Notes: generated by a model not told the origin, from the letters alone. A DNA stretch of 64,000 nucleotides from Candidatus Nomurabacteria bacterium (GCA_016699365.1 CP064973.1:507524-571523), one strand, 5' to 3'; positions 15,271-30,121 are shown, counted from the first letter of the stretch. Made by a program: numbers and translations.

Positions 15271-15897
15271 GTGGAAAATCAAAGTACTCAAACAAATGTT
15301 CGCCTAGTTTTGGCACAGATAGGTGTTATTTTTGTTTTACCAGTATTTTTACTTTATTTTGGATTGGTTCCAGAATCTTGGCGCATAGTTGTATTGTTTA
15401 TATCTTCACTTTTTATTTACGGAATTATTCAACATGAGCGGTGGCAGCAAAAAGATTTTGGATACAGACTCGACAACTTTCGTCACGCACTCTTGCCTTA
15501 TGCTGCATTTACTCTAACAGGAGCAACTTTGATAATCTGGTTTGCAAATCAAAATGGCATGACTCCTGTGGAGGGGTGGTGGACCAATCCACATTTCTTG
15601 TATTTATTCTTGGTCGTTTCTTTTTTGCAAGAGTTTGCTTTCAGAGGATTTCTAATTCCATTACTTAGAAAAGTTTTTTCTGACAGATTGGGAATCGTAT
15701 TAATAAATGCACTATTGTTTACATTGATTCATATTCTGTATCCGATTCCAACCATTATGTTGCCGCTAGCTTTTATTGGAGGTTTAGGCTTTGCGACTGT
15801 GTATATGATTTACCCAAATCTTATTTTGATTAGTCTTGCTCATTCAGTGTTGAACTTTATCGCTGTACTTTTTGGTTTTTTCGTAATAATCTCATAA
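15271..15897 (+). CDS. CPBP (CAAX protease/Abi) family intramembrane metalloprotease
   Basis: Multi-TM protein with EFAFRGFLIP (motif 1) and ALLFTLIH / H-containing motifs. The start is GTG at 15271, so the exact start is uncertain. Confidence 0.7.
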   Translation: MENQSTQTNVRLVLAQIGVIFVLPVFLLYFGLVPESWRIVVLFISSLFIYGIIQHERWQQKDFGYRLDNFRHALLPYAAFTLTGATLIIWFANQNGMTPVEGWWTNPHFLYLFLVVSFLQEFAFRGFLIPLLRKVFSDRLGIVLINALLFTLIHILYPIPTIMLPLAFIGGLGFATVYMIYPNLILISLAHSVLNFIAVLFGFFVIIS

Positions 15898-16586: not shown

Positions 16587-19139
16587 ATGTTTTTTCGTCG
16601 TAGAAGTAAGACGAGTCATATAAAAAATACATGGATAGAAGATGTCACGATTTCTGGTAAATCTAAGGTTCTTTCTCTGCGACCAACCTATTTTGTAATA
16701 AGAATTGATAAACAAAAAATACGCGAACTTTTCAGTAAGGATAAATATTTTATAGGTTATGGTTTGGTTGTATTGATGGTGCTAGCGGTTTCATCTCTAT
16801 CAAATCCTACAAAAGCTGATGTTGTAAATTTCTATCCCACAAGCTGTCTTGGTGGTTGGGAGAATCCTGAAAATGCAACAGGTGCTCCGAGTTTGGAGAA
16901 AGATGACAGTATAGAATCTTTCAATGACGAGAACTCAGCTCGTATGCGTGGCACATCAGATATATTCTGCGGTGGGTTTGAAGGAGAGATACCTCCAGAA
17001 GCAATCGCCAATTCTTTTTCTTTGAGTTTTAGAATTTCTGTCGACGATGGATCTGTTGAACATAGTAAGACAGAGATACTTGTTGTTCCAGAAACTGAAG
17101 ATGTCCGAGTTGGTACTGACAATATAGAAATAATAGAAATAGAAAATTCAAATGACGGGACTCAATCAACTGATTCTTTAGAAAGTGATGTTTTAGATAG
17201 TGGAGTAGATTCTACAGATACTGTTCAATCAGAAGAAGCTCCATCAGTTGCTCCAGAAGTTATTGAGCAAGTAATTGAAGTCGAAGCTCCGGCAGAAGAA
17301 TCTCCAGAGCCAGTAAGTTCACCGGAGCCAGAACCTAGTCCCGCAGAGCCTGCTGGTGAATCTGCATTTCTTAGATTCTTTACAAAGAGAGTGCATGCTG
17401 AAGGTGAAGATATATCAAGTGTGGAAACAGCAGAACCACAAATAGTTGAGGTGGTAGTAGATGAACCTGTTGTGATAGAAGAAATTCCAGAACCACAATC
17501 TGAAAACCTAGAGCAAGCAGATACTAGTTCTGGTGAAGTTATAAATATAGACAGATCTTCATCTGAAAACGGTGAAGCCGATTTGGATAGTACTCCAAAT
17601 GAAGATTCAGAAAATATTGCAGAGGTTATACCAAACGATGCAATATTGAAAATTGTTTATACATTGGATGGAGAAAAGTGGGTGTCACTCGGATATGTTT
17701 CTATGAGTTCTTGGAAAGATTTGAATTTTAGTCTGCCTCTGAAGGAATGGTCAGATGTAAATAGTTTTCAAATAAAATTGGAACAAGTTTCTAGTTTCGA
17801 TGAAAAGCCTGTTGTGTTTTTGGATTCAGTTATTCTTTCAGCTGAATACGACGGACTAGGAGAAGATCCTATAAGACAGCCAGATTTTGGTACAGATGTA
17901 ATCTTGTCTGATAAAACAATTGACGATATAAGAGTAATAAAGATTTTACGCAACGATATACCGATGATTTGGTATACAAAGATTCCACCAGCAGTAGAGC
18001 TTCCAGAAGGTGAGATAATAGAAGAACAGGGTGGTGTAGAAATTATAGTTGTAACAGAAGATGAAACTGAGGGGTCTCTCGATAACCCAGTAGAAGTAGA
18101 GGTTGTAGCTCCAGTAGAAGAGATAGTAGAACCAGAAGTAGTGGAAACAATAGAGGAGCCTGTTGTCGAAACTTTGCCAGTAGATCTGGCTCCGGAAAAT
18201 ACAGAAATAGTTCCATCAGAGAATACAGAAATTATTTCATTTGGTAGAAAAATCAAAAATCTTTTTGGTGTACTGCAAGTATATGCTGAAGGTGAAGATG
18301 GTGGTGGTGAATCTTCAGGAGGTAGTGGTGGCGAGAGTGGTGGCGGAGAAAGCTCTTCTAGCGGAGGAGATTCATCTTCTTCGGCAGAGAGTAGTTCAAG
18401 TACTTCAGAATCTTCTGCGGGTGACGAAGCTTCTTCAGCTAGTAGTACAAGCGACGGAAGTGAAGCTGGTTCTTCTGAGAATTCTATTTCTGATAGTACT
18501 GTAGACAATCCTGATTCATCAGAAAATTCTGTAGTATCAGAAGACAATTCTGAAACATTAAATTCAGATGCAATTATAGAAAATCAAGTAAATGATTCAA
18601 TAAACAAAGTTCTAGATGATATAAATATTGGTGAGAGTGGTAATATTATTATCGACACTATTCATAAATATGATAATAGTGATGTTAAAATCACAGAGGA
18701 TCTTATTTTGAGTACAACAGAAGCTATTGTCCCAGGACTTACTCCTATTTCATATACAGAAGAACAAATCATGAACGAGAGAGCTAGTGGAACAGAGTGG
18801 AATTTGGTTGCGTTGGGATCAAGCGTAGATGTTGCGACCACTGTCGACGTGAGTGGAGGTATAATCTTTTGGTTTGCTCCGGGCAATACTGCAATTTATC
18901 AATACAACACAGCTTCAGGGGGAATTTCTTCTGAAGGAATTAGTTCCACAGTTGATTCTGAGATAAAATATTTAGAACCAAACGGTGATATTTCAGAGAT
19001 ATCTGTAGACGCACAGAATTCCGAACTCATCACACCCAAAGAAGAAAAAGATACTTTAGAAATAGAGTCTATATCGAATTCAGAAAGCATAAAAGAAGAG
19101 GGTGTGGAAGATATTACGACAAAGGAAAAAATTGATTAA
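16587..19139 (+). CDS. large acidic low-complexity surface protein (850 aa) with N-terminal TM anchor
   Basis: A TM helix (GYGLVVLMVLAVSSL), then Glu/Ser/Pro/Val-rich tracts (PEPVSSPEPEPSPAEPAGE; GGGESSGGSGGESGGGESSSSGGDSSSSAESSSS). A ...AEGED motif preceded by a hydrophobic stretch occurs twice. Confidence 0.6.
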   Translation: MFFRRRSKTSHIKNTWIEDVTISGKSKVLSLRPTYFVIRIDKQKIRELFSKDKYFIGYGLVVLMVLAVSSLSNPTKADVVNFYPTSCLGGWENPENATGAPSLEKDDSIESFNDENSARMRGTSDIFCGGFEGEIPPEAIANSFSLSFRISVDDGSVEHSKTEILVVPETEDVRVGTDNIEIIEIENSNDGTQSTDSLESDVLDSGVDSTDTVQSEEAPSVAPEVIEQVIEVEAPAEESPEPVSSPEPEPSPAEPAGESAFLRFFTKRVHAEGEDISSVETAEPQIVEVVVDEPVVIEEIPEPQSENLEQADTSSGEVINIDRSSSENGEADLDSTPNEDSENIAEVIPNDAILKIVYTLDGEKWVSLGYVSMSSWKDLNFSLPLKEWSDVNSFQIKLEQVSSFDEKPVVFLDSVILSAEYDGLGEDPIRQPDFGTDVILSDKTIDDIRVIKILRNDIPMIWYTKIPPAVELPEGEIIEEQGGVEIIVVTEDETEGSLDNPVEVEVVAPVEEIVEPEVVETIEEPVVETLPVDLAPENTEIVPSENTEIISFGRKIKNLFGVLQVYAEGEDGGGESSGGSGGESGGGESSSSGGDSSSSAESSSSTSESSAGDEASSASSTSDGSEAGSSENSISDSTVDNPDSSENSVVSEDNSETLNSDAIIENQVNDSINKVLDDINIGESGNIIIDTIHKYDNSDVKITEDLILSTTEAIVPGLTPISYTEEQIMNERASGTEWNLVALGSSVDVATTVDVSGGIIFWFAPGNTAIYQYNTASGGISSEGISSTVDSEIKYLEPNGDISEISVDAQNSELITPKEEKDTLEIESISNSESIKEEGVEDITTKEKID

Positions 19140-19141
19140 AA

Positions 19142-22100
19142 ATGAAATTTTTATATCTTAAAACAAAAATAAATAAAATTTCAAATTTTTTTAATTTTAA
19201 AAAAGTTCTAACCATTTTTTTAATTGTGGCATTTTTATTTAGTGGTTTTACAGACATGGTTCTGATGCGTGTTTTAGACAAAAGATCAGAAGAGCCTGTT
19301 GTAAAAAATGCAGAAGCGGCCACCTATCAATTTTTCCCAACTGACGTAGTAGTCGAGACAGGCACTGAGCAAAATGTCACATCTGCGACTATTGCTGCAA
19401 CCGAAGGAACAAACTTAGGTTCTCATCAAGGAATGATGACAAACGATGGTTTCCATTGGCAAGTTGCTGGTGCAGGTGCATCTGGTATCTCTATGGTTGT
19501 TACCATAGGTGGAGTCGGGCTAAACGGTGCAAACAAACTCGATATCGGTACAGAGATAGATATGGATGCTACAGCGTACAGTATGCTTTTTCAGATATGC
19601 GACTTTACTTCAACAACCAACGTAGACAACGCAGCCGATGCAAACTGTACTGGAGGCGGGTGGCGTACAATAAACACTCAGAATGCATCAAACGCCGATG
19701 TAGCATATACGGATACTGCAAACGATCAGTTGCGATGGCAACTTTACAATGGTGTTTTTTCCAACGGAACATCTGATGCCGGTACACCTATCGATACACC
19801 ACTTACGTACTTCGTGAATGGAAGTAATGAAATGAAATTTCGGTACTACTCTACAACAAGCTCTACTTCTGTTGTATCTATAGACTATCTAACTGCATTT
19901 GCATATATAGACTCTGTGTACTATGCAGCAGACTATGTAGATCAGGTTTCTGGTGGAGGTACGGAGACAGGGGTGTATGTAAACTCTGTTCCGATAGTTA
20001 ACAACGCTACCGCATGGACTTCTGCAAGTACAAACGACAACAACCGTGTAGGAGTATCTGCAACTTCGCAGGTCGTAGACTTCTATTTGTCATATCAAAA
20101 TATCAAACAGTATACGGGGATGAATACCATACTCGTCGGTTCTTCGGTGAACTGTACTGGTGCAACAACTATCCGACAGTATTTGTACAACTTTACTGAT
20201 AGCGCATGGGATCAGATAGGTTCGGATGTTTCGTGTACGACATCGGACGTAGATAGATATTTTGCGCACAACTCGGCAGTTGATGGAGGATTTGTATTCA
20301 ATGACTACATATCAGCAGGTGAGATGCGCGTTCGATGGGCGTCGACTGCGTCTGTGACAAACGGTATTTTTGTTGACTGGCAATATGTAATGCTCGGTTC
20401 TGTAAATACAGATTCATCTCTGTGTGAGATATCTTTTGGTACAGGTACTGCAACAAACTGCACAAACACTCGAACTCTCAATACTCTTGCTGCAGCATCT
20501 ACTTTTGATATCGCAGGTGAAGACGAAGCTGCTGCTATGGGAACAGGAGAAGCAAATTCATTTTATCCAAACGATACCGATCAGGATACTACTGTTGAAG
20601 AGGGTGTATCTGCAAATATATCTGTACCGGTAACAGTTCCTGCCAATGCACAAGTGGTTGGTATAAACTGGTCTAGTCGTACGACTTCGCGCAGCACTGG
20701 AACTACGAGAGTTACAAATAGTTTGAGGGATTACTCAGGACTAACTTCTACTACTGGTGGATGGACGGATGTCGGAGCTGCAGTAAACGCAACAACACAG
20801 ACTTATCAAGACAATGTTATAACAGCAGCTGTTTTATCATATGGGCAACAAATAAATCCAGAGGACTATGTCGACACAGTGAACGGTCGTATGAATATGC
20901 GTCTACGTACGTCTACGTCAGGAGCGACAACGGACAACTCTACAACAGCATGGGATTTTGCAATGATGTCTATTCAATGGATAGAGGATTCTAGTAATCC
21001 TACAGTTACGTACCAGTTTACACCTACCGGACAAACTCTGGTTACAGGTACAGATACAACAGCAAATAATACTATTGCCGCGGGAGCAAACGGCGCAAAT
21101 ACTGGCTCATGGAAAGGTACACTTGCTGATGACAATCGTCACTGGGAGCTTACTGGAACAGCGAGTGGTATAGATGTAGAGCTTTTCATGAACGGGGTAA
21201 AGCTCAATGGGGCAAACACTATAATAGTACAGTCTGAAATAGACGTAGATGCTACAGCTCCGACATTGCTTGTACAGATATGTGATTGGGTTTCAACTAC
21301 AAGCGTAGACCATGCTGCAGATTCAAATTGTACAGGAGGAGGGTGGAGGACACTCAACTCTCGTGATGCGGTAATAACACCAACTACAGCAACTGCATAT
21401 ACATGGAACGTCTATGACGGTAAGTGGTCCAACGGATCCAATACTCCAGTTTCTACTCCACTTACGAACTTTGTTACAACCGACTCAAACAAGCGCGTTT
21501 TGGTCAGGTACTATTCAACAACAAACGCTACAACAGCCGGTAACTTCGCGATAGATTATTTGCGTATATATCCTGTGATTAATCCTGTCTATGAACCAGG
21601 TGACGCAACAGCACTTACAAACTCTTTTACTGGAGATTACACAAATGCAAATACAGTCACACAAGGAGGTGCAGACAATACGGACCTTCAGTGTCTCGGT
21701 ACAACCGGTGGGCCAGACTGTTATTTGTCATTTTTCAATGTCAAAACGTATCCGAGTATGAATACAATTCTTGCTCGTTCAGAGTTCGCGTGTACAGCAA
21801 CAACAGAAGCTCCTGAAATAAAAATGGCACTAAGGAATTTTACAACTGGTGCATGGGACGACATAACGACAGAAATACCAAACTGTTCAACAACGGACAC
21901 AGTACGTATCGGTGCCAAAAACAATATTACGGTCAGTGACTATGTTTCAAATGGTGAAGTGCGCTTGCGATATTATAGATCATCTGGAGCTGGTACTGGA
22001 GCAATCCAGATAGACTATTCATATATAATGCTTGGAACTACGAATTCGGATTCTGCTGGGGCCTATTGTTTCATATCATTTGGGACAAACTCAGCAAATG

Positions 22101-23149
22101 ATTGTACTGCAACTCGTACAATAGATATGAATGGTTCTACAAACAACGGTACGACATGGCAGATACTTGCAGAAGATGAGTCGACAAACAGAGGAGCAGG
22201 AGAGGCGAATGACTTCTATTCCTTTGATGTAGATATGAACGCGACAGCTTCTCAGGAGGGGTCGGCCTCGCATACCAAATTTAGCTTGAGTGGAGAGCCA
22301 GCGTACGGCGCTATAACAGGTATTTTCTTTTCATCTCAACATATGGCTGGTACAGCTGGTACTGTCGCCTTAAATATCGCAGACTATTCTGGATATAACA
22401 CAGCAGCAGTTGCTGCGGGAGGGTTCATTGCTCTCGGAGCGACTGCAACAACGGCACTTGTATATACAGACAACATAACCGTAGGTACAGCTATATCTGG
22501 AGGTGCAGCTGGTTATATGACAAACCCCGATGACTTGGTAAATACCTCAGGTGATGAAGGTTGGTTTAGGTTGCGTACATCGACAGACGGTAGTTCGGCG
22601 TCAAACGCAGTTCGGCAATGGGATTTTGCAATGATGTCTTTGCAGTGGGTGGAGACCGAAGATAGGACTATATCATTTGATATATCAGATACCACTATAG
22701 GATTTGGTCCACTTACAACATCGAATGCTCGCTATGCAACAGGGGATGCAGCTGGTAGCGATACTGAGGCTACAGCCCATACTCTCACAGCGTCTTCAAG
22801 TGCAGCTGGTGGATATACAATAACAGTAGAAGGTCCTACACTAACTAGTGCTGGCGGCACAATAGATGCAATTGGTAGTACGAATACCGCTTCGAGCGCA
22901 GGAACAGAACAGTTTGGAATCAAGGCTACAGTAGCAGGTATTTCATATTATGATGCCGTAGATGATACATATAGTGGTTCTGGTTATGGATACGACGGCA
23001 CTTCTGGTGCGTCAACATTTGCAACACAGTCACAAGGAGATGGATTTACTTCAACTTATTCAGTTGGTTATATTGCCAACATGTCCACAGGAACAGAAAC
23101 AGGTGCGTATTCTACAGATCTAAACTACATAATGACAGGGAACTTCTAA
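19142..23149 (+). CDS. giant Thr/Asn/Ser/Gly-rich surface protein (1335 aa) with N-terminal TM, two ~510-aa internal repeats and a C-terminal domain shared with the next two genes
   Basis: Repeat 1 (~19440-20990) and repeat 2 (~21130-22660) share ICDFTSTTNVDNAADANCTGGGWRTIN / ICDWVSTTSVDHAADSNCTGGGWRTLN and WDFAMMSIQW / WDFAMMSLQW. The C-terminus ...YIANMSTGTETGAYSTDLNYIMTGNF parallels the paralogs. Confidence 0.7.
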   Translation: MKFLYLKTKINKISNFFNFKKVLTIFLIVAFLFSGFTDMVLMRVLDKRSEEPVVKNAEAATYQFFPTDVVVETGTEQNVTSATIAATEGTNLGSHQGMMTNDGFHWQVAGAGASGISMVVTIGGVGLNGANKLDIGTEIDMDATAYSMLFQICDFTSTTNVDNAADANCTGGGWRTINTQNASNADVAYTDTANDQLRWQLYNGVFSNGTSDAGTPIDTPLTYFVNGSNEMKFRYYSTTSSTSVVSIDYLTAFAYIDSVYYAADYVDQVSGGGTETGVYVNSVPIVNNATAWTSASTNDNNRVGVSATSQVVDFYLSYQNIKQYTGMNTILVGSSVNCTGATTIRQYLYNFTDSAWDQIGSDVSCTTSDVDRYFAHNSAVDGGFVFNDYISAGEMRVRWASTASVTNGIFVDWQYVMLGSVNTDSSLCEISFGTGTATNCTNTRTLNTLAAASTFDIAGEDEAAAMGTGEANSFYPNDTDQDTTVEEGVSANISVPVTVPANAQVVGINWSSRTTSRSTGTTRVTNSLRDYSGLTSTTGGWTDVGAAVNATTQTYQDNVITAAVLSYGQQINPEDYVDTVNGRMNMRLRTSTSGATTDNSTTAWDFAMMSIQWIEDSSNPTVTYQFTPTGQTLVTGTDTTANNTIAAGANGANTGSWKGTLADDNRHWELTGTASGIDVELFMNGVKLNGANTIIVQSEIDVDATAPTLLVQICDWVSTTSVDHAADSNCTGGGWRTLNSRDAVITPTTATAYTWNVYDGKWSNGSNTPVSTPLTNFVTTDSNKRVLVRYYSTTNATTAGNFAIDYLRIYPVINPVYEPGDATALTNSFTGDYTNANTVTQGGADNTDLQCLGTTGGPDCYLSFFNVKTYPSMNTILARSEFACTATTEAPEIKMALRNFTTGAWDDITTEIPNCSTTDTVRIGAKNNITVSDYVSNGEVRLRYYRSSGAGTGAIQIDYSYIMLGTTNSDSAGAYCFISFGTNSANDCTATRTIDMNGSTNNGTTWQILAEDESTNRGAGEANDFYSFDVDMNATASQEGSASHTKFSLSGEPAYGAITGIFFSSQHMAGTAGTVALNIADYSGYNTAAVAAGGFIALGATATTALVYTDNITVGTAISGGAAGYMTNPDDLVNTSGDEGWFRLRTSTDGSSASNAVRQWDFAMMSLQWVETEDRTISFDISDTTIGFGPLTTSNARYATGDAAGSDTEATAHTLTASSSAAGGYTITVEGPTLTSAGGTIDAIGSTNTASSAGTEQFGIKATVAGISYYDAVDDTYSGSGYGYDGTSGASTFATQSQGDGFTSTYSVGYIANMSTGTETGAYSTDLNYIMTGNF

Positions 23150-23179
23150 TTTGTTTTTTTGCAAAATATTATTTTGGTA

Positions 23180-23188
23180 TGCTATAAT
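23180..23188 (+). promoter_or_regulatory. extended -10 element TGCTATAAT upstream of the 23216 paralog
   Basis: ggtatgctataatta lies 28 nt before the ATG. Confidence 0.45.
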
Positions 23189-23215
23189 TAAAGTAACTTT
23201 AGAGAACATACTTAT

Positions 23216-24313
23216 ATGATAAAAAAAATCACAAGTTCAATAATGATACTTTCTGTCATCACTGCAAACTTTGTGGGATTTAGTGATACAGCTTTTGCTG
23301 CAAGTGTAACAACTTTCTCTGATACACTTTCTACACTCACAGCCTCAACTGCGGCGAACCACGAAATACTTTTTATAACTCCAACTGGTGTAGAGGCCAA
23401 CAATGACACGATGATTTTTACTTTTACAGGCTTTGATGGTACATCACTAGACGCAATTGCATTTGGAGATGTAGATCTAGCAGAAAGTACAAATGCCAGC
23501 TGTTCAAACCCAGGTACATGGAACGAGAAAACACTTGCTGCCACAGACGCAGCTTCTACATATGGTGTAGCCACAAACTCCACAACACTTCTTTTTGATC
23601 CACCAACAACATCTGGATATATTACAGCTGGTAATTGTATAAGAATCAAAATCGGAACAAATGCTTCTACTGGTGTTGCTGGTACAAACCAGATTACAAA
23701 CGGAGGAGCTGCAACTGCACACTCAATTGCTATATCAGGAAACTTCGCTGACACAGGAACAGCATCTATAGATATTATTGCTGATGATTCTGTTAGCTTA
23801 AGTGCAACAGTTGATTCAGCTATATCTTTTACTGTAGATGATACAACTATAGGTTTTGGAACCTTGGATGCCGCCGCCGCTAGGTGGGCAACAGGTGATG
23901 CAACAGGAACATCTTCTTTGCCAGGAGATACATCAGGTGCACATCAAATGACACTTTCTACAAACGCAGCCTCTGGATATTCAATCACTTACAACGGAGC
24001 AACGCTCACAAGTGGTGCAAATACTATAGACGTAGCTACTATATCTGAAGATGATGATGGAACTCCTGCCTCAGAGCAGTTCGCGATCGGGCTAGACGAC
24101 AATGGTAGTAATGTAACAATAGTTTCAGACTATGATTTAGCTACTACAAACAGTTATAAGTTTGTTGCAGGTACTACTACAACAGTTGCGTCTGAAACTG
24201 CGCCTACTGCCACAGAGACATTTGATGTTCAGTATATTGCGAATATATCTACAGTGACAGAAGCAGGATCATACTCAACAAATGTTACTTGGATAGCAAC
24301 AGGTAACTTTTAG
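23216..24313 (+). CDS. secreted surface protein, paralog A (signal peptide, C-terminal shared domain ending ...TWIATGNF)
   Basis: Signal peptide MIKKITSSIMILSVITANFVGFSDTAFA. The last ~165 aa are near-identical to the 24407 product and homologous to the C-terminus of the giant protein. Confidence 0.7.
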   Translation: MIKKITSSIMILSVITANFVGFSDTAFAASVTTFSDTLSTLTASTAANHEILFITPTGVEANNDTMIFTFTGFDGTSLDAIAFGDVDLAESTNASCSNPGTWNEKTLAATDAASTYGVATNSTTLLFDPPTTSGYITAGNCIRIKIGTNASTGVAGTNQITNGGAATAHSIAISGNFADTGTASIDIIADDSVSLSATVDSAISFTVDDTTIGFGTLDAAAARWATGDATGTSSLPGDTSGAHQMTLSTNAASGYSITYNGATLTSGANTIDVATISEDDDGTPASEQFAIGLDDNGSNVTIVSDYDLATTNSYKFVAGTTTTVASETAPTATETFDVQYIANISTVTEAGSYSTNVTWIATGNF

Positions 24314-24406
24314 AACATGATATCCACAGTGTTGCTATGATATTTTTTGTGTGTTTATATGGTACAATTTTAAAATAGATTATTAAATTATTATCCAGAT
24401 TCAAAT

Positions 24407-25498
24407 ATGATAAAAAAATTTACAAGCTTCCTAGTAATATTCTCTGTAATCGCTACAAACTTTGTAGGATTTGCAGATAAGGCTCTCGCTGCAAGTGTAA
24501 CAACTTTCTCTGATACACTTTCAACACTACAAGCATCGACTGCTGCGAACCACACAATATACTTTGTAACTCCTACAGGAGTAGCCTCTGGAGGCACAGT
24601 CACTCTTACTTTCGATGCAGACTTTACCGGAGTATCTGCAATTGACGATACAGACTTGGACTTCGCAGAAGGTGACTCTGGTACTTGTACTTCAGCTTCA
24701 TATACAGAAGAAACTCTTGTTGCGTCTGGTGCAACTTCTTCACAGTTCAACGCTTCTGCTTCAGGTCAGGTTATTACTTTTGAATCTGGAGGTGCATCAG
24801 CAACAGTAACAGCAGCTCGATGTATTCGTATCAAGATTGGTACAAACGCAACTTCTGGAGTTACTGGTGCTGAGCAAATCTCAAACGGGGCTGCTGCAAA
24901 CGGACACTCAGTTACAATCGGAGGAACTTTTGGTGACTCAGGTACAGCAGCTATAGATATTATTGCTGATGATTCTGTTAACATAACTGCAACAGTTGAT
25001 CCTACTATTACTTTTACAATATCTGACACCACAGTAGGTTTTGGTACACTAACAACAGGCTCTGCTTCTTGGGCTACTGGAGATTTGGCAGGTGTAACAT
25101 CTGTTCCAGGAGATACATCAGGTGCACATGAAATGACAGTTGCTACAAACGCAGCTTCTGGATACTCAATCACTTACAACGGCGCAACACTTACAAGTGG
25201 TGCAAATACTATAGACGTAGCTACTATATCTGAAGATGATGATGGAACTCCTGCCTCAGAGCAGTTTGCTCTAGGAATAGATGACAACGGTGGAAACGTA
25301 ACTATAGTTTCTGATTACGACCTTGCGACTGCAAACAGTTATAAATTCGTCGCAGGTACTACTACAACAGTCGCATCTGAGACTGTTGCTACAGCAACAG
25401 AAACAATAGATGTGCAGTATATTGCCAATGTATCTGGAGTTACAGAAGCTGGTTCATATACAACTAACGTTACTTGGATAGCAACAGGTAACTTCTAA
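24407..25498 (+). CDS. secreted surface protein, paralog B
   Basis: Signal peptide MIKKFTSFLVIFSVIATNFVGFADKALA. It shares 74-nt and 35-nt identical stretches with paralog A. An extended -10 TGCTATGAT sits at ~24338-24346. Confidence 0.7.
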   Translation: MIKKFTSFLVIFSVIATNFVGFADKALAASVTTFSDTLSTLQASTAANHTIYFVTPTGVASGGTVTLTFDADFTGVSAIDDTDLDFAEGDSGTCTSASYTEETLVASGATSSQFNASASGQVITFESGGASATVTAARCIRIKIGTNATSGVTGAEQISNGAAANGHSVTIGGTFGDSGTAAIDIIADDSVNITATVDPTITFTISDTTVGFGTLTTGSASWATGDLAGVTSVPGDTSGAHEMTVATNAASGYSITYNGATLTSGANTIDVATISEDDDGTPASEQFALGIDDNGGNVTIVSDYDLATANSYKFVAGTTTTVASETVATATETIDVQYIANVSGVTEAGSYTTNVTWIATGNF

Positions 25499-25503
25499 AT
25501 CTT

Positions 25504-26544
25504 ATGCTTAAAAGAACATCAATAGTCACACTATTCGTCGCACTATCATTTGTTTCTTTTGGCTTCACTAAAAACGCTCAAGCGCTAACACTTACTCCTG
25601 TAAGAATAGAAGTTAGTGGTGATGCTGGTAGTACTGTAACAAGTGAGATTACGCTTATAAATGACAGAGATACAGAAGAAACATTCTACTCATCATATGC
25701 AAACTTTGAGGCTCAAGGTGAAACAGGAAGTCCAAACTTCGTAGACCCAACAGAAGGTCTTGGAACATGGATAAAGACAGATGAAGTAGTCGTATTAGGT
25801 CCTGGAACAAGTAAGATCATACCTGTCACAATAACAATACCTTCCAATACTGAACCAGGAGGATACTTTGCTGCTGTATTTTTTGGCACAAATAATCCAA
25901 ACCTTGGAGACGCAGGGAGTGTTTCTATAGGCGCAAAGACTGGAGTCCTAGTACTACTTCGAGTAAATGGTGAAGTAAACGAGCAAGGTGGAATACTAGA
26001 ATACGACACAAAAGATCACAAGAGATTTTTCACATCACTGCCTGTTGATTTTTATTACAGATTTCAAAATACAGGAGGAGATAGAGTTAAGCCAGAAGGA
26101 GATATAACAGTGAAGCATTTTCTAGGTTTTGTTCGAGCGAAAGTTCCAGCAAACCTAGTAGAAGGTAACGTTCTACCAAATCAAATAAGAAGATTTGAAG
26201 CTTCATGGCAGAGTAAGAACGGCAATAGTGTCGCAGTTGATGAGAATTTGAATTTTATTGAAAACGTAAAAAATCAATGGGTCAACTTTGCTTTTGGATA
26301 CTACAAAGCAAATATAAGTCTTGTGTATGGAGAAGGAGACAAGATAACAGAATCTTCTGTAGGAATATGGGTTTTTCCATGGCAACTTCTCATAACTATA
26401 CTAGTAGCCCTATTTATAATAAGATTTATTTGGAAGAAAATATCCATTCATCGCAGAAAAGAATTGATGTCTGAGATGCGCGAAGAGCTGATGAAAGAAA
26501 TGAATAGTAAAAATAGCACTGAAAAGACTCATATACAGTTTTAG
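25504..26544 (+). CDS. secreted protein with C-terminal TM anchor and short basic cytoplasmic tail (DUF916/DUF3324-like architecture, tentative)
   Basis: Signal peptide (cleavage near AQA-LT), a beta-rich ectodomain, then a TM (WQLLITILVALFIIRFIW) and KKISIHRRKEL... tail. Confidence 0.55.
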   Translation: MLKRTSIVTLFVALSFVSFGFTKNAQALTLTPVRIEVSGDAGSTVTSEITLINDRDTEETFYSSYANFEAQGETGSPNFVDPTEGLGTWIKTDEVVVLGPGTSKIIPVTITIPSNTEPGGYFAAVFFGTNNPNLGDAGSVSIGAKTGVLVLLRVNGEVNEQGGILEYDTKDHKRFFTSLPVDFYYRFQNTGGDRVKPEGDITVKHFLGFVRAKVPANLVEGNVLPNQIRRFEASWQSKNGNSVAVDENLNFIENVKNQWVNFAFGYYKANISLVYGEGDKITESSVGIWVFPWQLLITILVALFIIRFIWKKISIHRRKELMSEMREELMKEMNSKNSTEKTHIQF

Positions 26545-26559
26545 TATAGGTAAAGGCCG

Positions 26560-27459
26560 ATGTCTTTATTCAATAAAAACAAAAAGCATATTGTAGGCAT
26601 ATTTTTGCTTGGTATGCTTTTTGTTTTTTCTGCTGAAGTATCCAGTGCTGTTGATTTGAGTATATCTGCGCAGGTTGGTGCAGGGGGCGGTGGAGATGTT
26701 GGCGGGGGCGGAGGAGGTGGGGGTGGTGGAGGCGCAAATGATGGGGACTCCACTGTAAACTTTTCTGGATATGCATATCCACTGTCTCAGGTTATAGTAC
26801 TCCGTGACGGTATAGAGGTTGTACAGACTATTGCTGGTCCTGATGCAAAATTTAGTATAAGTATCTCAGATCTCCCAGAAGGTAACTATACTTTTTCTGT
26901 TCTAGCTGAAGATTATCAAGAAAGAAGATCCACTCTTTTTACATTTCCACTATATCTTACTGATGGATTGACTACTACTATATCCGGAATCTTTATTGCT
27001 CCATCTATTGCAATAGATAAAAGCGTAGTAAAGCAAGGAGAACAGATTACAATATTTGGACAATCTACTCCAAATTCTGAAGTTTCTATTAGTGTGAATT
27101 CGTTGAATGAGTTTATATTGAATACTTTTACTGATAGTAGTGGTATCTATCTATCTGTTTTTAATACAAGCTTACTTGAAATAGGTGATCATACTACACG
27201 ATCATATTCAAAGTACTTAGAAGCCACTTCTTCATATTCTAGTACACTTGCTTTTGAAGTTTCAGACAAAGCTGGGGAGGTTTTGGTGTGTGGTACAAAA
27301 GCCGATGTAAGTTCTGATTGTAGAGTAAACCTAGTGGATTTTTCCATGTTGGCTTATTGGTTTGAGAGAGGAACTCCACCTGTGGCGTTTGATTTATCTG
27401 GAGACGGCAAAATTACTTTGATTGATTTTTCTATAATGGCTTATTATTGGACTGGCTAA
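26560..27459 (+). CDS. secreted Gly-rich protein with C-terminal tandem dockerin-like repeats
   Basis: Signal peptide, a poly-Gly tract (GAGGGGDVGGGGGGGGGGGANDGD), and a C-terminus DVSSDCRVNLVDFSMLAYWFE ... DLSGDGKITLIDFSIMAYYWTG, which is two D-x-[SN]-x-D-G-x-[VI]-x-x-x-D-F-x-x-[LM] segments. Confidence 0.6.
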   Translation: MSLFNKNKKHIVGIFLLGMLFVFSAEVSSAVDLSISAQVGAGGGGDVGGGGGGGGGGGANDGDSTVNFSGYAYPLSQVIVLRDGIEVVQTIAGPDAKFSISISDLPEGNYTFSVLAEDYQERRSTLFTFPLYLTDGLTTTISGIFIAPSIAIDKSVVKQGEQITIFGQSTPNSEVSISVNSLNEFILNTFTDSSGIYLSVFNTSLLEIGDHTTRSYSKYLEATSSYSSTLAFEVSDKAGEVLVCGTKADVSSDCRVNLVDFSMLAYWFERGTPPVAFDLSGDGKITLIDFSIMAYYWTG

Positions 27460-27464
27460 AAAAC

Positions 27465-28364
27465 ATGAGAAACAATTATTTTAAAATACTTTTTATATTC
27501 ACCTTGCTTGTATTCACTAACAATATGATATTTGCTAGTGGCTCTGATGTCGTATTCAAATATCCAGAAAATACAACAAAGACAAGTAGTCCATTTTCCT
27601 TGAGTGTCTTATTGGATACATCCGGAGATGATATCAATGCTATTGAAGGCACTCTGTATTATGATGATAATTTTTTTGAACTAGTAGATATTGTTGATGG
27701 TAATAGTGTAGTTACTTCTTGGGTGAAAAAACCAGTAGAAGAAGGAGGGAAAATAACTTTTTCGGGGATCATGGCAGGTGGGTATCTTGGAACAATTGAG
27801 CCGTTGACCAACAATATCGGTCCAGGTGTCTTGTTTGAATTGGTATTATTGCCAAAGATAGAAGGATCTGGGTCTATTACACTTACAGATACAATTGTAT
27901 ATAAAAATGATGGACTAGGTACTTCAAAAAGTATTGCTACAAAAGACATATCAATAGAATCTAACATAAATGGATTTTCAGATTATATCCAAAATGTAGA
28001 CAATATAAGACCATTGGTTTTTTCTCCTATAATTTCAAAAAATCCGGATATGTTTGAGAATAGATATTTTATTGTATTTGATACACAAGATAAAGAATCT
28101 GGTATAGATCATTTTGAAGTAAGAGAAGGTAGGAGAGATTGGGTATTGGCAGAGAGTCCGTATGTCCTACAAGATCAGACATTGAAGAGTCATATACGTG
28201 TTAAGGCAGTAGATAAGGCTGGTAACGAGCGTGTAGTTAACTATGAAGACAGAATAGATTTTCCTATTTCAATTCTTTCTATACCGATTATTATTATCTT
28301 AATCATAATCATTTCTGTATACTTTTGGTACACTAGAAAAATACGTATTTTAAGTGTAAAATAA
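27465..28364 (+). CDS. membrane-anchored protein with cohesin-like beta-sandwich module and C-terminal TM
   Basis: Start at ATG 27465 (MRNNYFKILFIFTLLVFTNNMIFA; the track start 27447 is TTG). Cohesin-like pattern FSLSVLLDTSGDDINAIEGTLYYDDNFFELVDIVDG...GKITFSG...LFELVLLPKIEGSGSITL. C-terminal TM ILSIPIIIILIIIISVYFW. Confidence 0.5.
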   Translation: MRNNYFKILFIFTLLVFTNNMIFASGSDVVFKYPENTTKTSSPFSLSVLLDTSGDDINAIEGTLYYDDNFFELVDIVDGNSVVTSWVKKPVEEGGKITFSGIMAGGYLGTIEPLTNNIGPGVLFELVLLPKIEGSGSITLTDTIVYKNDGLGTSKSIATKDISIESNINGFSDYIQNVDNIRPLVFSPIISKNPDMFENRYFIVFDTQDKESGIDHFEVREGRRDWVLAESPYVLQDQTLKSHIRVKAVDKAGNERVVNYEDRIDFPISILSIPIIIILIIIISVYFWYTRKIRILSVK

Positions 28365-28369
28365 AATAC

Positions 28370-30121
28370 ATGACTCTTCCTTCGTTTAACATAAGAATTT
28401 TTTCTGTAACACTTTTTTTGTGTATATTTTTTATTGTTCCAAAAAATACAAATGCTGCTTCATTTCAAATATCTCCAACTACAGGCAATGTATCAAATTC
28501 AGGATCAATAACTCTCACGGTTAGTCTTGCGACTAGCTCATCTGTTCCAGTAAATGCTTTTTCAGGTAGGTTGAATTTTCCTACAGAATTAGTTTCGAAT
28601 ACAAATATATCTGTTAGTGGTTCAATCGCAAATTTTTGGACAGTGCAACCCTCAGTCTCTTCAGATGGTGTAATAAGATTTGAAGGTATTGTTTTAAATC
28701 CAGGTTTTAGTGGATCTAGTGGTAAGTTGTTTACAGCTACATTCAAGACAGAAGGTACAGGCACAGCAAACTTTAACCTTACTAGTGCGTCTATATTGGC
28801 AAACGATGGACTTGGTACAAATGTTTTGACTGCTACTTTACCTACATCTGTATTTACAATTGGAAACGCAGCCCCAGTGGCCACTACTCCTGCTACGACT
28901 AGCTCCACTCCGATTGCTCCGGAGATAATGTCTTCGTCACACCCAAATCCAAATGGCTGGCATAAAGAGACTGTAGCTGATCTTTATTGGGATCTTCCAG
29001 AAGATGCCAATGGAGTGTCATTTGTTTTAGATAAAAATCCTGGAACCATACCAGCAAAAGTTTCAAAGGGCTTAGTAAGTTCATATAAGTCTGAACCTCT
29101 AGAAGATGGTGTGTGGTACATGCATGTCATGATAAAGAATTCTGTCGGATGGGGAAGCGTTGCTCATTATAGAGTAGGCGTTGATACAGTTGCACCAGAA
29201 TCTGTGAGTATAACTCACGTCCACGAGGAAATTCCTATGGGCACTAGCAAGTTTGATATATCAGCCGAAGATATAACTTCAGGGATTGCTTACTATGAGA
29301 TAAGTTTTGATGCGGGAGATACGGAAATATTTAAAAAATATTCAGAAACTGATTTGTTTGAATCAAAAATCTTGCCACCAAAAAGATATCTTGTGGTTGT
29401 AAATGCATATGACTTTGCTGGAAATACAACTCCAGCCATTATGTATTTTACTGCAATGCCTGTGAATCAGCCGGTGATTACAGAGTACTCAAAAGAATTA
29501 AATAGTGGAGAATATTTAACTCTTTCGGGTACTGGATATGAAAATCAAAACGTAAGAGTTCGTTTTGAAAAAAGTAAAACATCTTTCTTTTATAAAATAT
29601 TTGCCCACACAAGAAGCGCTGCATTAAATGAAGAAGTAACAAAAGTAGACAAGGATGGGAAGTTCTCTTTTAGAAATGACGAATCTTGGAACGCTGGAAT
29701 ATATTATGTAACAGTTCGAAACGAACTATCCAACGGAGCTTTCAGTGAATACACAACTCCTGTTCAAATAACAGTAGAGAGTGGTGCTTTTGTTAGATTC
29801 ATAGAATCCTCTCTAAGATTCTTGATACCTGTCATTCCTTTCTTGCTTGCAATCATACTTATACTTTTTGCAGGATTGTTTATTTTAAGATTTTTCAAAA
29901 AATACAGAAGAATCCTGTCTAAACAAGTAAGAGAAGCTGAGGGTGTGGCCGATGAATCTATGAGATTGATTGACAGTGAAGTCTTGGATGAGATAAATCT
30001 GCTCAAAAAAGTACGCTCAGGTGAACCTCTATCAGAAAGAGAGCAGGCTTTCCTAACTAAACTTCGAGGGGATTTGGGTGTTGCAAATTCTATAATTCAA
30101 AAAGAAATAAAAGATATATAA
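28370..30121 (+). CDS. large surface protein with N-terminal cohesin-like module, Ig/FN3-like middle, and C-terminal TM plus cytoplasmic tail
   Basis: Signal peptide, cohesin-like segment (GSITLTVSLATSSSVPVNAFSGRLNFPTELVSNTNI...GVIRFEGIVLNPGFSGSSGKLFTATFKTEGTGTANFNL), a TM (FLIPVIPFLLAIILILFAGLFIL), then a charged tail. Confidence 0.5.
   Translation: MTLPSFNIRIFSVTLFLCIFFIVPKNTNAASFQISPTTGNVSNSGSITLTVSLATSSSVPVNAFSGRLNFPTELVSNTNISVSGSIANFWTVQPSVSSDGVIRFEGIVLNPGFSGSSGKLFTATFKTEGTGTANFNLTSASILANDGLGTNVLTATLPTSVFTIGNAAPVATTPATTSSTPIAPEIMSSSHPNPNGWHKETVADLYWDLPEDANGVSFVLDKNPGTIPAKVSKGLVSSYKSEPLEDGVWYMHVMIKNSVGWGSVAHYRVGVDTVAPESVSITHVHEEIPMGTSKFDISAEDITSGIAYYEISFDAGDTEIFKKYSETDLFESKILPPKRYLVVVNAYDFAGNTTPAIMYFTAMPVNQPVITEYSKELNSGEYLTLSGTGYENQNVRVRFEKSKTSFFYKIFAHTRSAALNEEVTKVDKDGKFSFRNDESWNAGIYYVTVRNELSNGAFSEYTTPVQITVESGAFVRFIESSLRFLIPVIPFLLAIILILFAGLFILRFFKKYRRILSKQVREAEGVADESMRLIDSEVLDEINLLKKVRSGEPLSEREQAFLTKLRGDLGVANSIIQKEIKDI

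Follow-up and report, generated by a model that had tools for sequence, protein, structure and literature searches.

Pam pili are filaments specific to the candidate phyla radiation (CPR) and are put together through donor-strand exchange (Troman et al., bioRxiv 10.64898/2026.03.03.709456). Cryo-EM of filaments from Ca. Mycosynbacter amalyticus, a CPR bacterium, revealed two pilins, PamA and PamB, that form distinct stretches inside one filament and are joined by a linker of one subunit that fills the open C-terminal domain of its neighbor (10.64898/2026.03.03.709456). Also encoded in the pam operon are two chaperones of the PapD/FimC type (PamC and PamD), which have the unusual feature of a C-terminal membrane helix, a single-domain tip subunit without a linker (PamT), and an RbmA-like anchor (PamR), in which two fibronectin type III (FnIII)-like domains are combined with a transmembrane helix and a donor strand at the N-terminus; the preprint identified no dedicated trans-envelope assembly machinery (10.64898/2026.03.03.709456). 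In the WxL clusters of Firmicutes, a small WxL protein and a large one that ends in a WxL domain are accompanied by a WxLIP (DUF916-DUF3324-transmembrane), and AlphaFold predicts that a disordered loop of the WxLIP turns into a strand and completes the WxL sandwich (Hassan et al. 2023, PMC10599100). Here we analyze a 64,000-nt stretch of the genome of a Candidatus Nomurabacteria bacterium (GCA_016699365.1, CP064973.1:507524-571523; hereafter the window), in which three adjacent genes encode proteins of very different size with a shared C-terminal domain (CTD). Judged by its sequence, this ~160-aa domain is the Pam-pilin CTD, a kind already known though described only in 2026, and the locus represents a compact pilus operon of the Pam type in the Parcubacteria group, a fresh example of a known system. 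We consider it likely that the operon specifies a pilus with strand-accepting CTDs, two shaft pilins, a giant tip protein and a membrane-anchored chaperone, whose assembly in this organism we would deduce from homology and the logic of its parts.

The three open reading frames (ORFs) lie at 19142..23149 (1335 aa, the giant), 23216..24313 (365 aa, pilin paralog 1) and 24407..25498 (363 aa, pilin paralog 2) on the + strand, as do the other genes of the block and the elements described within and between them. A local CTD hidden Markov model (HMM) delimits the domain to residues 1177-1335 of the giant (nt 22670-23146), 203-365 of paralog 1 (nt 23822-24310) and 201-363 of paralog 2 (nt 25007-25495). 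BLASTP with composition-based statistics aligns the giant with paralog 1 at 41% identity across 181 aa (E=4e-24), and full-length identity between the two paralogs is 67%. Because Thr, Gly, Ser and Ala together make up ~55-60% of the domain and could by themselves create an apparent resemblance, we compared these scores with those of shuffled sequences: the giant CTD reaches a local score of 283 against paralog 1, where 1000 shuffles average 60 with a standard deviation of 9 (z=24), and z=20.6 against paralog 2. In the three-way alignment 60 columns are invariant, and aromatic or hydrophobic residues occupy many of these (F3, F12, L15, Y49, I51, L58, I65, F82, V97, Y108, V132, Y134, I135, Y147, I154 and F159). 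The profile search that the first-pass annotation had proposed, in which the three window CTDs were compared with 1.84 billion representative proteins, brought up 767 clusters, 401 of them at E<=1e-10. The composition-adjusted E-value, shuffle z-scores of 21-24, the invariant columns and the public family together refute the explanation by low-complexity Thr/Ser/Gly composition, to which we assign practically no weight. Compositional bias alone had been named beforehand as the finding that would undo the proposed three-gene domain; conserved aromatic and hydrophobic columns are present instead, and the observation of a shared domain therefore stands.

All three proteins pass the curated cutoff of 55 bits of NF058581 (CPR_Pam_pilin_C, Pam pilus system pilin subunit; NCBIfam release June 2026), the giant just marginally with 55.5 bits, in addition to its BLASTP match to the paralogs, and the pilins with 82.3 bits (paralog 1) and 75.2 bits (paralog 2). 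A Pfam scan of the giant and both pilins returned no match, searches of PDB sequences with the pilin, both as a single sequence and as a profile, found neither PamA nor PamB nor any other entry, and the source genome annotates these proteins as hypothetical (QQR76444.1, QQR76446.1). Earlier annotation had suggested that the domain acts as a common assembly module, a suggestion borne out by NF058581 and the Pam preprint, according to which the CTD is the strand-accepting half of a donor-strand-exchange pilus.

The family extends well beyond this genome. Homologue searches gave 798 matches for the pilin and 1,051 for the chaperone-like protein encoded downstream of the pilins, and a scan of one genome per species yielded 80 loci, whose architecture we read with local HMMs. 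These loci come from Paceibacterota, Nomurabacteria, Doudnabacteria, Kerfeldbacteria, Uhrbacteria, Andersenbacteria, Microgenomatus and unnamed Patescibacteria; the named sources of homologues are all CPR, in line with the restriction of Pam to the CPR, and some titles of third-party metagenome-assembled genomes (MAGs) differ. Among these MAG records, L001, L024, L028, L035-L037, L051, L054 and others are titled 'uncultured Gammaproteobacteria', 'Pseudomonadales' or 'Bdellovibrionales' and look mislabelled. A pilin gene is followed by a chaperone-like gene in 78 of 81 loci, and 35 loci show the order of a linker-less CTD protein, one or two pilins, and the chaperone.

Both pilins consist of a signal peptide (residues 1-28 in each), an N-terminal beta-sandwich domain (NTD; residues 29-185, nt 23300-23770, in paralog 1 and residues 29-183 in paralog 2), a predicted donor-strand linker (residues 186-202, nt 23771-23821, and residues 184-200, nt 24956-25006, respectively) and the CTD. 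An AlphaFold2 model of paralog 1 built with 78 homologues (predicted local distance difference test, pLDDT, 91.8) resolves a beta-domain at residues 34-185 and a second at 203-365, separated by an unstructured linker at 186-202 with a pLDDT of ~65. That linker corresponds to a motif, 'DIIaDDxVxvTATVdPt', within the near-invariant 20 residues that precede the CTD in 96 of 96 two-domain pilins from the 81 loci. Measured as the majority-residue fraction, conservation in the family is 0.75 in the linker and 0.78 in the first and last CTD strands compared with 0.60 in the NTD, the same pattern that the preprint reports for Pam pilins, in which the linker and the edge strands of the CTD are most conserved.

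The two paralogs are 50% identical in the NTD, 71% in the linker and 83% in the CTD. Recent gene conversion between them was considered and ruled out, as DNA identity in the CTD ranges from 63 to 97% per 60 nt and 48 synonymous differences separate the two copies. These region-wise identities and the many synonymous differences indicate an old duplication under purifying selection, in which the joining interface appears to have been kept while the exposed surface diversified. By analogy with PamA and PamB, the two shaft paralogs probably make up separate stretches of one filament, or variants of it. Some family members, such as the 205-aa P0349 with a signal peptide, a linker-like strand (VSVAATVDQS) and a CTD, appear to have the classical layout of a single-domain pilin with an N-terminal donor strand; such a layout may hint at the origin of the two-domain pilins.

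The giant differs from the pilins in everything that precedes the CTD. It begins with a hydrophobic export or anchor segment (residues 15-45), continues with two head modules of ~560 aa each (residues 61-620, nt 19322-21001, and residues 623-1172, nt 21008-22657) that are 38% identical to one another (E=5e-100), and ends in the CTD, the proposed donor-strand acceptor. Neither the linker HMM nor a linker regular expression finds a donor-strand linker in it: within the block the HMM matches just the two pilins (E=1e-10 for paralog 1 and E=3e-13 for paralog 2), and across all 3,098 ORFs two-domain pilins account for 92 of its 95 matches. In the large CTD proteins, unrelated sequence runs directly into the start of the domain ('ISFsISDxTIGF') without the pilin linker. 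The segment that precedes the CTD in the giant, WDFAMMSLQWVE, also closes module 1, where no CTD follows, and we therefore assign it to the fold of the head module. Lacking a linker, the giant would accept a strand without being able to donate one, which would leave the distal end of the fiber as its only possible position, the place that FimH and PapG occupy in chaperone-usher pili. This distal, accept-only role is that of PamT in the preprint (10.64898/2026.03.03.709456). We thus propose, from the layout of the protein, that the giant is a distal tip adhesin.

Two observations weigh against this assignment: the PamT equivalog model NF058579 does not recognize the giant, with its head of ~1170 aa, and the hydrophobic segment with which the giant begins could in principle serve as an anchor. 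Together with a tightly coupled upstream partner gene of its own, they fit a giant that works outside the pilus as a stand-alone adhesin with a borrowed CTD, displayed separately on the chaperone or acting as an occasional cap. Comparison across loci makes such a role very improbable in our view, as a linker-less CTD protein of 249 to >3,000 aa is encoded directly upstream of the pilins, ending <=400 nt before the first of them, in 30 of the 76 loci for which upstream sequence was available, and its heads vary with lineage. Such a linker-less, head-variable protein in this position is what one would expect if the operon encodes its own tip subunit.

The wider family points the same way, towards a tip adhesin. 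Among the best 150 representatives from the profile search, the CTD ends within 5 residues of the C-terminus in 148 of the 148 proteins recognized by our local model, protein length ranges from ~140 to 3,318 aa, and none of the 67 CTD proteins of at least 420 aa carries a pilin NTD or the linker motif. The type of head found in this window occurs in just seven of the 80 related loci, and the heads of other loci include concanavalin-A-like lectin domains (Laminin_G_3; E=8e-26 and 4e-27), a BNR propeller (BNR_2) and G8. A constant joining domain combined with swappable binding heads is the signature expected of tip adhesins. Most of the loci that lack the order of linker-less CTD protein, pilins and chaperone have a second architecture, in which the pilin and chaperone are followed by another CTD protein and one to three chaperone paralogs. 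We observed it in L005 (~12.2-15.3 kb, with two extra chaperones), L013, L015, L018, L026 and similar loci, where the CTD protein, of ~365 aa, has a different NTD ('KIKVKARYG..TE.GYS'). This arrangement may be closer to the multi-chaperone operon of M. amalyticus.

Directly downstream of the pilins lies the gene for a membrane-anchored WxLIP/PapD-like protein of 346 aa (25504..26544), the proposed chaperone and base anchor, which has a signal peptide, two beta-domains (residues 29-290) and a C-terminal transmembrane helix (residues ~293-315). Its AlphaFold2 model (pLDDT 88.7) comprises the two beta-domains and a long C-terminal helix at 293-339, and its best Foldseek matches are EfmWxLIP1 of Enterococcus faecium (9i1y, and 9i25, 'bound to long WxL'; E=3e-11), followed by CsuC, CfaA, DraB, Caf1M, PapD and RbmA, with a probability of 1.0 for CsuC, CfaA, Caf1M and PapD. 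As a reference set we gathered authentic WxL and WxLIP proteins, taken from plasmids of Enterococcus, Lactiplantibacillus and Lactococcus and from a homologue search; 16 WxL proteins served for hhalign. The chaperone family aligns with Firmicute WxLIPs in its first domain with an hhalign probability of 95.4% (E=2e-8), where five controls reach at most 15%, and 66 of the 81 family members match PF06030 (WxLIP_PGBD, formerly DUF916). Detectable homology is confined to this first domain, and the match to a WxLIP in a search of PDB sequences with the chaperone profile was non-significant (E=0.33). On the profile comparisons, the partner protein is a true WxLIP homologue. A loop at residues ~129-144 (nt 25888-25935, NNPNLGDAGSVSIGAK), which is modeled with low confidence as unstructured and contains the family-conserved G.V.IGAKTG, lies where the strand-forming loop of the WxLIP lies, and for that reason we put it forward as a candidate for the strand with which the chaperone would complement its client.

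The shared CTD itself is not a WxL domain. No protein of the window matches the Pfam WxL model PF13731, nor does any of 78 family members even at E<=1, whereas genuine WxL proteins included as positive controls match it at 1e-38 to 1e-41; hhalign of the CTD with WxL domains yields 2.8%, over the last 40 columns only, corresponding to the last two strands ('G.Y...ITW/Y'). W-x-L motifs are absent from the three CTDs, and no block protein contains an LPxTG-like motif. On the strength of the Pfam, hhalign and motif results, we rejected the CTD as a WxL domain. The description of the module as WxL-like in the first-pass annotation thus holds for the architecture of the cluster and for its WxLIP-homologous partner, and fails for the family membership of the CTD.

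The resemblance to WxL clusters such as csc of Lactiplantibacillus plantarum, or to the proteins in PDB 9i1y and 9i25, is nonetheless substantial: in both, proteins of disparate size share a CTD, an adjoining partner with two immunoglobulin-like (Ig-like) domains and a C-terminal membrane anchor has a first domain homologous to DUF916, and this partner is predicted to complete the beta-sandwich of the shared domain with a strand of its own. One could read the locus as a WxL-type surface-display complex, as proposed for the Firmicute clusters, in which the CTD is a docking tag that holds monomers on the WxLIP-like protein, the cell wall or both; the WxLIP homology of the partner and the arrangement of one large and two small proteins fit this reading. 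We consider such a display complex improbable, since the CTD passes the Pam-pilin model rather than any WxL model, members of the Pam-pilin family make filaments in cryo-EM, and the near-invariant linker, present only in the ~365-aa class, would have no obvious role in it. WxL proteins are regarded as monomeric and cell-wall-bound, whereas the pilins here carry a dedicated polymerization donor strand. The Pam preprint makes no mention of WxL or DUF916, and we suggest that the WxL parallel probably extends to the principle of binding.

The same features separate the operon from, and connect it to, other donor-strand systems. As in chaperone-usher pili (Pap/Fim, Csu, CFA/I, Caf1), an Ig-like subunit would be complemented by a two-domain chaperone and then undergo strand exchange, a tip adhesin would combine a binding head with a pilin domain, and the genes for tip and major subunits share an operon. 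Unlike those systems, the locus has no usher (none of the block proteins gave an usher-type match), the cell lacks an outer membrane, the chaperone is membrane-tethered, and the donor strand is an internal interdomain linker rather than an N-terminal extension; the Pam filament is, moreover, extended and linear (10.64898/2026.03.03.709456). The alternative of a TasA-like biofilm-matrix fiber, also raised in the first-pass annotation, shares with our reading the assembly of protomers by donor strands and seems hardly credible: the proteins have no Peptidase_M73/TasA match in Pfam, no TasA structure appears among the top fold matches, no SipW-type signal peptidase was found among the window genes scanned against family libraries, and the donor strand is an internal linker and not an N-terminal strand. 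TasA fibers and the environmental TLP-1 fibrils (PDB 8AUR, 9IKJ, 9IKK) are built from single-domain protomers with N-terminal donor strands and have no sequence relationship to the pilins described here. We had supposed that the TLP-1 template labeled 'F. bacterium' might be a CPR organism (Falkowbacteria) and dropped this idea, as its paper gives Flavobacteriales.

We propose the following mechanism for the Pam-type pilus. All components would be exported by Sec, and every block protein does possess an export or membrane segment. The CTD is proposed to be an incomplete Ig-like domain whose groove is filled by a beta-strand from the next subunit. The membrane-anchored chaperone would temporarily occupy the CTD groove of each new subunit until an incoming pilin, with its linker strand, drives the chaperone strand off the preceding subunit, so that the fiber would grow from its base. 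The giant would occupy the distal tip and bind the target with its two ~560-aa head modules, and the shaft paralogs would present differing exposed NTDs on a common joining interface. The last subunit would remain on the membrane-anchored chaperone, perhaps aided by the cohesin and dockerin proteins encoded downstream.

Gene spacing within the block is -13 to +23 nt, except for gaps of 66 nt and 93 nt that precede the two pilin genes. Earlier annotation had placed an extended -10 element in each gap and suggested independently promoted, interchangeable surface subunits; both strings are located as stated, TGCTATAAT at 23180-23188 and TGCTATGAT at 24333-24341. Upstream of pilin 1, TGCTATAAT forms part of a promoter-like site (23159..23188) with TTGCAA, an 18-nt spacer and the extended -10, which agrees with consensus at 10 of 12 positions plus the TG and whose -10 element is conserved in the related loci L001 and L002. 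Upstream of pilin 2, TGCTATGAT is found just in the window and in its closest relative, L002, and in neither L001 nor L003, and it overlaps the 3' arm of a weak hairpin directly after the stop codon of pilin 1 (24319..24348), formed by an A/T-rich stem of 5-6 bp (24319-24324 with 24339-24344) running into a T-run (24343-24348), which may act as a leaky terminator or attenuator. A second extended -10-like element, TGGTACAAT (24360..24368), is conserved in relatives and aligns with TGGTATAAT or TGGTACAAT in L001, L002 and L003, and the site noted earlier is thus probably misplaced.

Since scans of the region for terminator and promoter consensus found it no richer than shuffled sequence, the argument for promoters rests on enrichment across loci. 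Allowing at most one hexamer mismatch, a TGnTATAAT-like element lies upstream of 61 of 93 pilin genes. Only 20 of 117 chaperone genes have one, as do 13 of the 42 genes whose CTD protein is without a pilin NTD, a class that comprises the tip class and the downstream CTD class; the background of one element per 2,390 nt predicts ~4% per 92-nt region. This enrichment makes it probable that the pilin genes have strong promoters of their own, as expected for major subunits. Independent promotion of interchangeable subunits is accordingly plausible, also in light of NTDs that have diverged further than the CTDs, with the second promoter at the conserved TGGTACAAT rather than at TGCTATGAT.

Downstream of the chaperone gene, 55-57 of 80 loci share three more genes at constant distances. 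The first encodes a secreted 299-aa protein with a Gly run, a Big_6 Ig domain and a dockerin domain at its C-terminus (26560..27459; Pfam Dockerin_1 3.6e-5, Big_6 3.7e-5) and lies ~1 kb past the chaperone gene in 56 of 80 loci; the second a 305-aa protein that combines a cohesin with an OmpL47-type domain and has, towards its C-terminus, a transmembrane segment at residues 268-299 (27447..28364; cohesin 6e-4, below the Pfam cutoff), present in 57 of 80 loci at ~+1.9 kb; and the third an exported 583-aa protein related to the second (28370..30121; 55 of 80 loci), with a transmembrane segment at residues 477-512 and a cytoplasmic tail of ~70 aa. The trio may form the base or anchor of the system, and the membrane-spanning 305-aa protein is a candidate docking partner or anchor. 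On the other side of the block, an acidic, low-complexity, Ser/Gly/Glu-rich protein of 850 aa with an N-terminal transmembrane segment (16587..19139) is encoded 2 nt before the giant gene. It occurs in 9 loci and is lineage-specific; because it mostly accompanies the same head module as that of the giant, it may be a head-specific accessory factor. A CPBP intramembrane protease at 15271..15897, a weak match to MrtS, was considered as a sorting enzyme for the conserved ...TGNF C-terminus and rejected, as it lies near the cluster in just 2 other loci and is therefore probably unrelated to the system. The flanks of the block hold genes for housekeeping and for cell division or the cell wall, which encode topoisomerase I, SerRS, FtsQ, PBP2, GreA, LysRS, RsmH, FtsZ, FtsA, MreB and a Mur ligase, and beside the operon, at 31300-51539, we observe PBP2, RsmH, an FtsI-like PBP, FtsZ, FtsA, a Mur ligase and MreB.

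Compared with the described Pam system, the operon agrees in passing the curated CTD model, in its two-domain pilins with a conserved linker strand, in having more than one shaft pilin, in a membrane-anchored PapD-like chaperone encoded in the operon, and in a linker-less CTD protein as a possible tip. It differs in its host, a member of the Parcubacteria group (Nomurabacteria), whereas the preprint emphasizes Saccharimonadia and Microgenomatia; in its linker-less subunit, which has 1335 aa and a duplicated head where PamT is a single domain of ~241 aa; and in its single chaperone gene, where M. amalyticus has two. No PamR is recognizable here: the linker HMM found no PamR-like donor-strand protein among the other block proteins, although the 305-aa cohesin/transmembrane protein has a comparable layout. 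The dockerin/cohesin trio after the chaperone gene is absent from the account in the preprint, which makes no mention of cohesin or dockerin, and the ATP-synthase neighborhood that the preprint describes is not seen here, where the window ORFs that we scanned include no ATP synthase genes and the flanks hold cell-division and cell-wall genes. What we add to the preprint is the giant linker-less tip candidate and the diversity of heads, the single chaperone with its WxLIP homology, the cohesin/dockerin trio, and the spread of the system in the Parcubacteria group.

A large part of bacterial diversity falls within the CPR, and most of these bacteria appear to lead a life in attachment to other cells. 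The Pam pilus is now seen encoded, compactly, in Nomurabacteria, with related loci in other lineages of the Parcubacteria group, and its variable heads of up to ~3,000 aa in the 81 loci, and 3,318 aa in the wider search, are natural candidates for determinants of host specificity. More speculatively, Pam pili and the Firmicute WxL/WxLIP systems may be branches of an old, usher-less donor-strand family of single-membrane bacteria that relies on a membrane-tethered chaperone of the WxLIP type; the giant heads, whether duplicated ~560-aa modules, lectin-like, BNR or G8, might then be interchangeable adhesins at the tip and determine which host cell comes within the grasp of an epibiotic CPR bacterium, with the trio as the base of the pilus. 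The homology between chaperone and WxLIP also points to strand completion as the principle by which the WxL surface clusters of lactic acid bacteria and enterococci, themselves poorly understood, may work, and it offers a testable link between the Pam and WxL fields.

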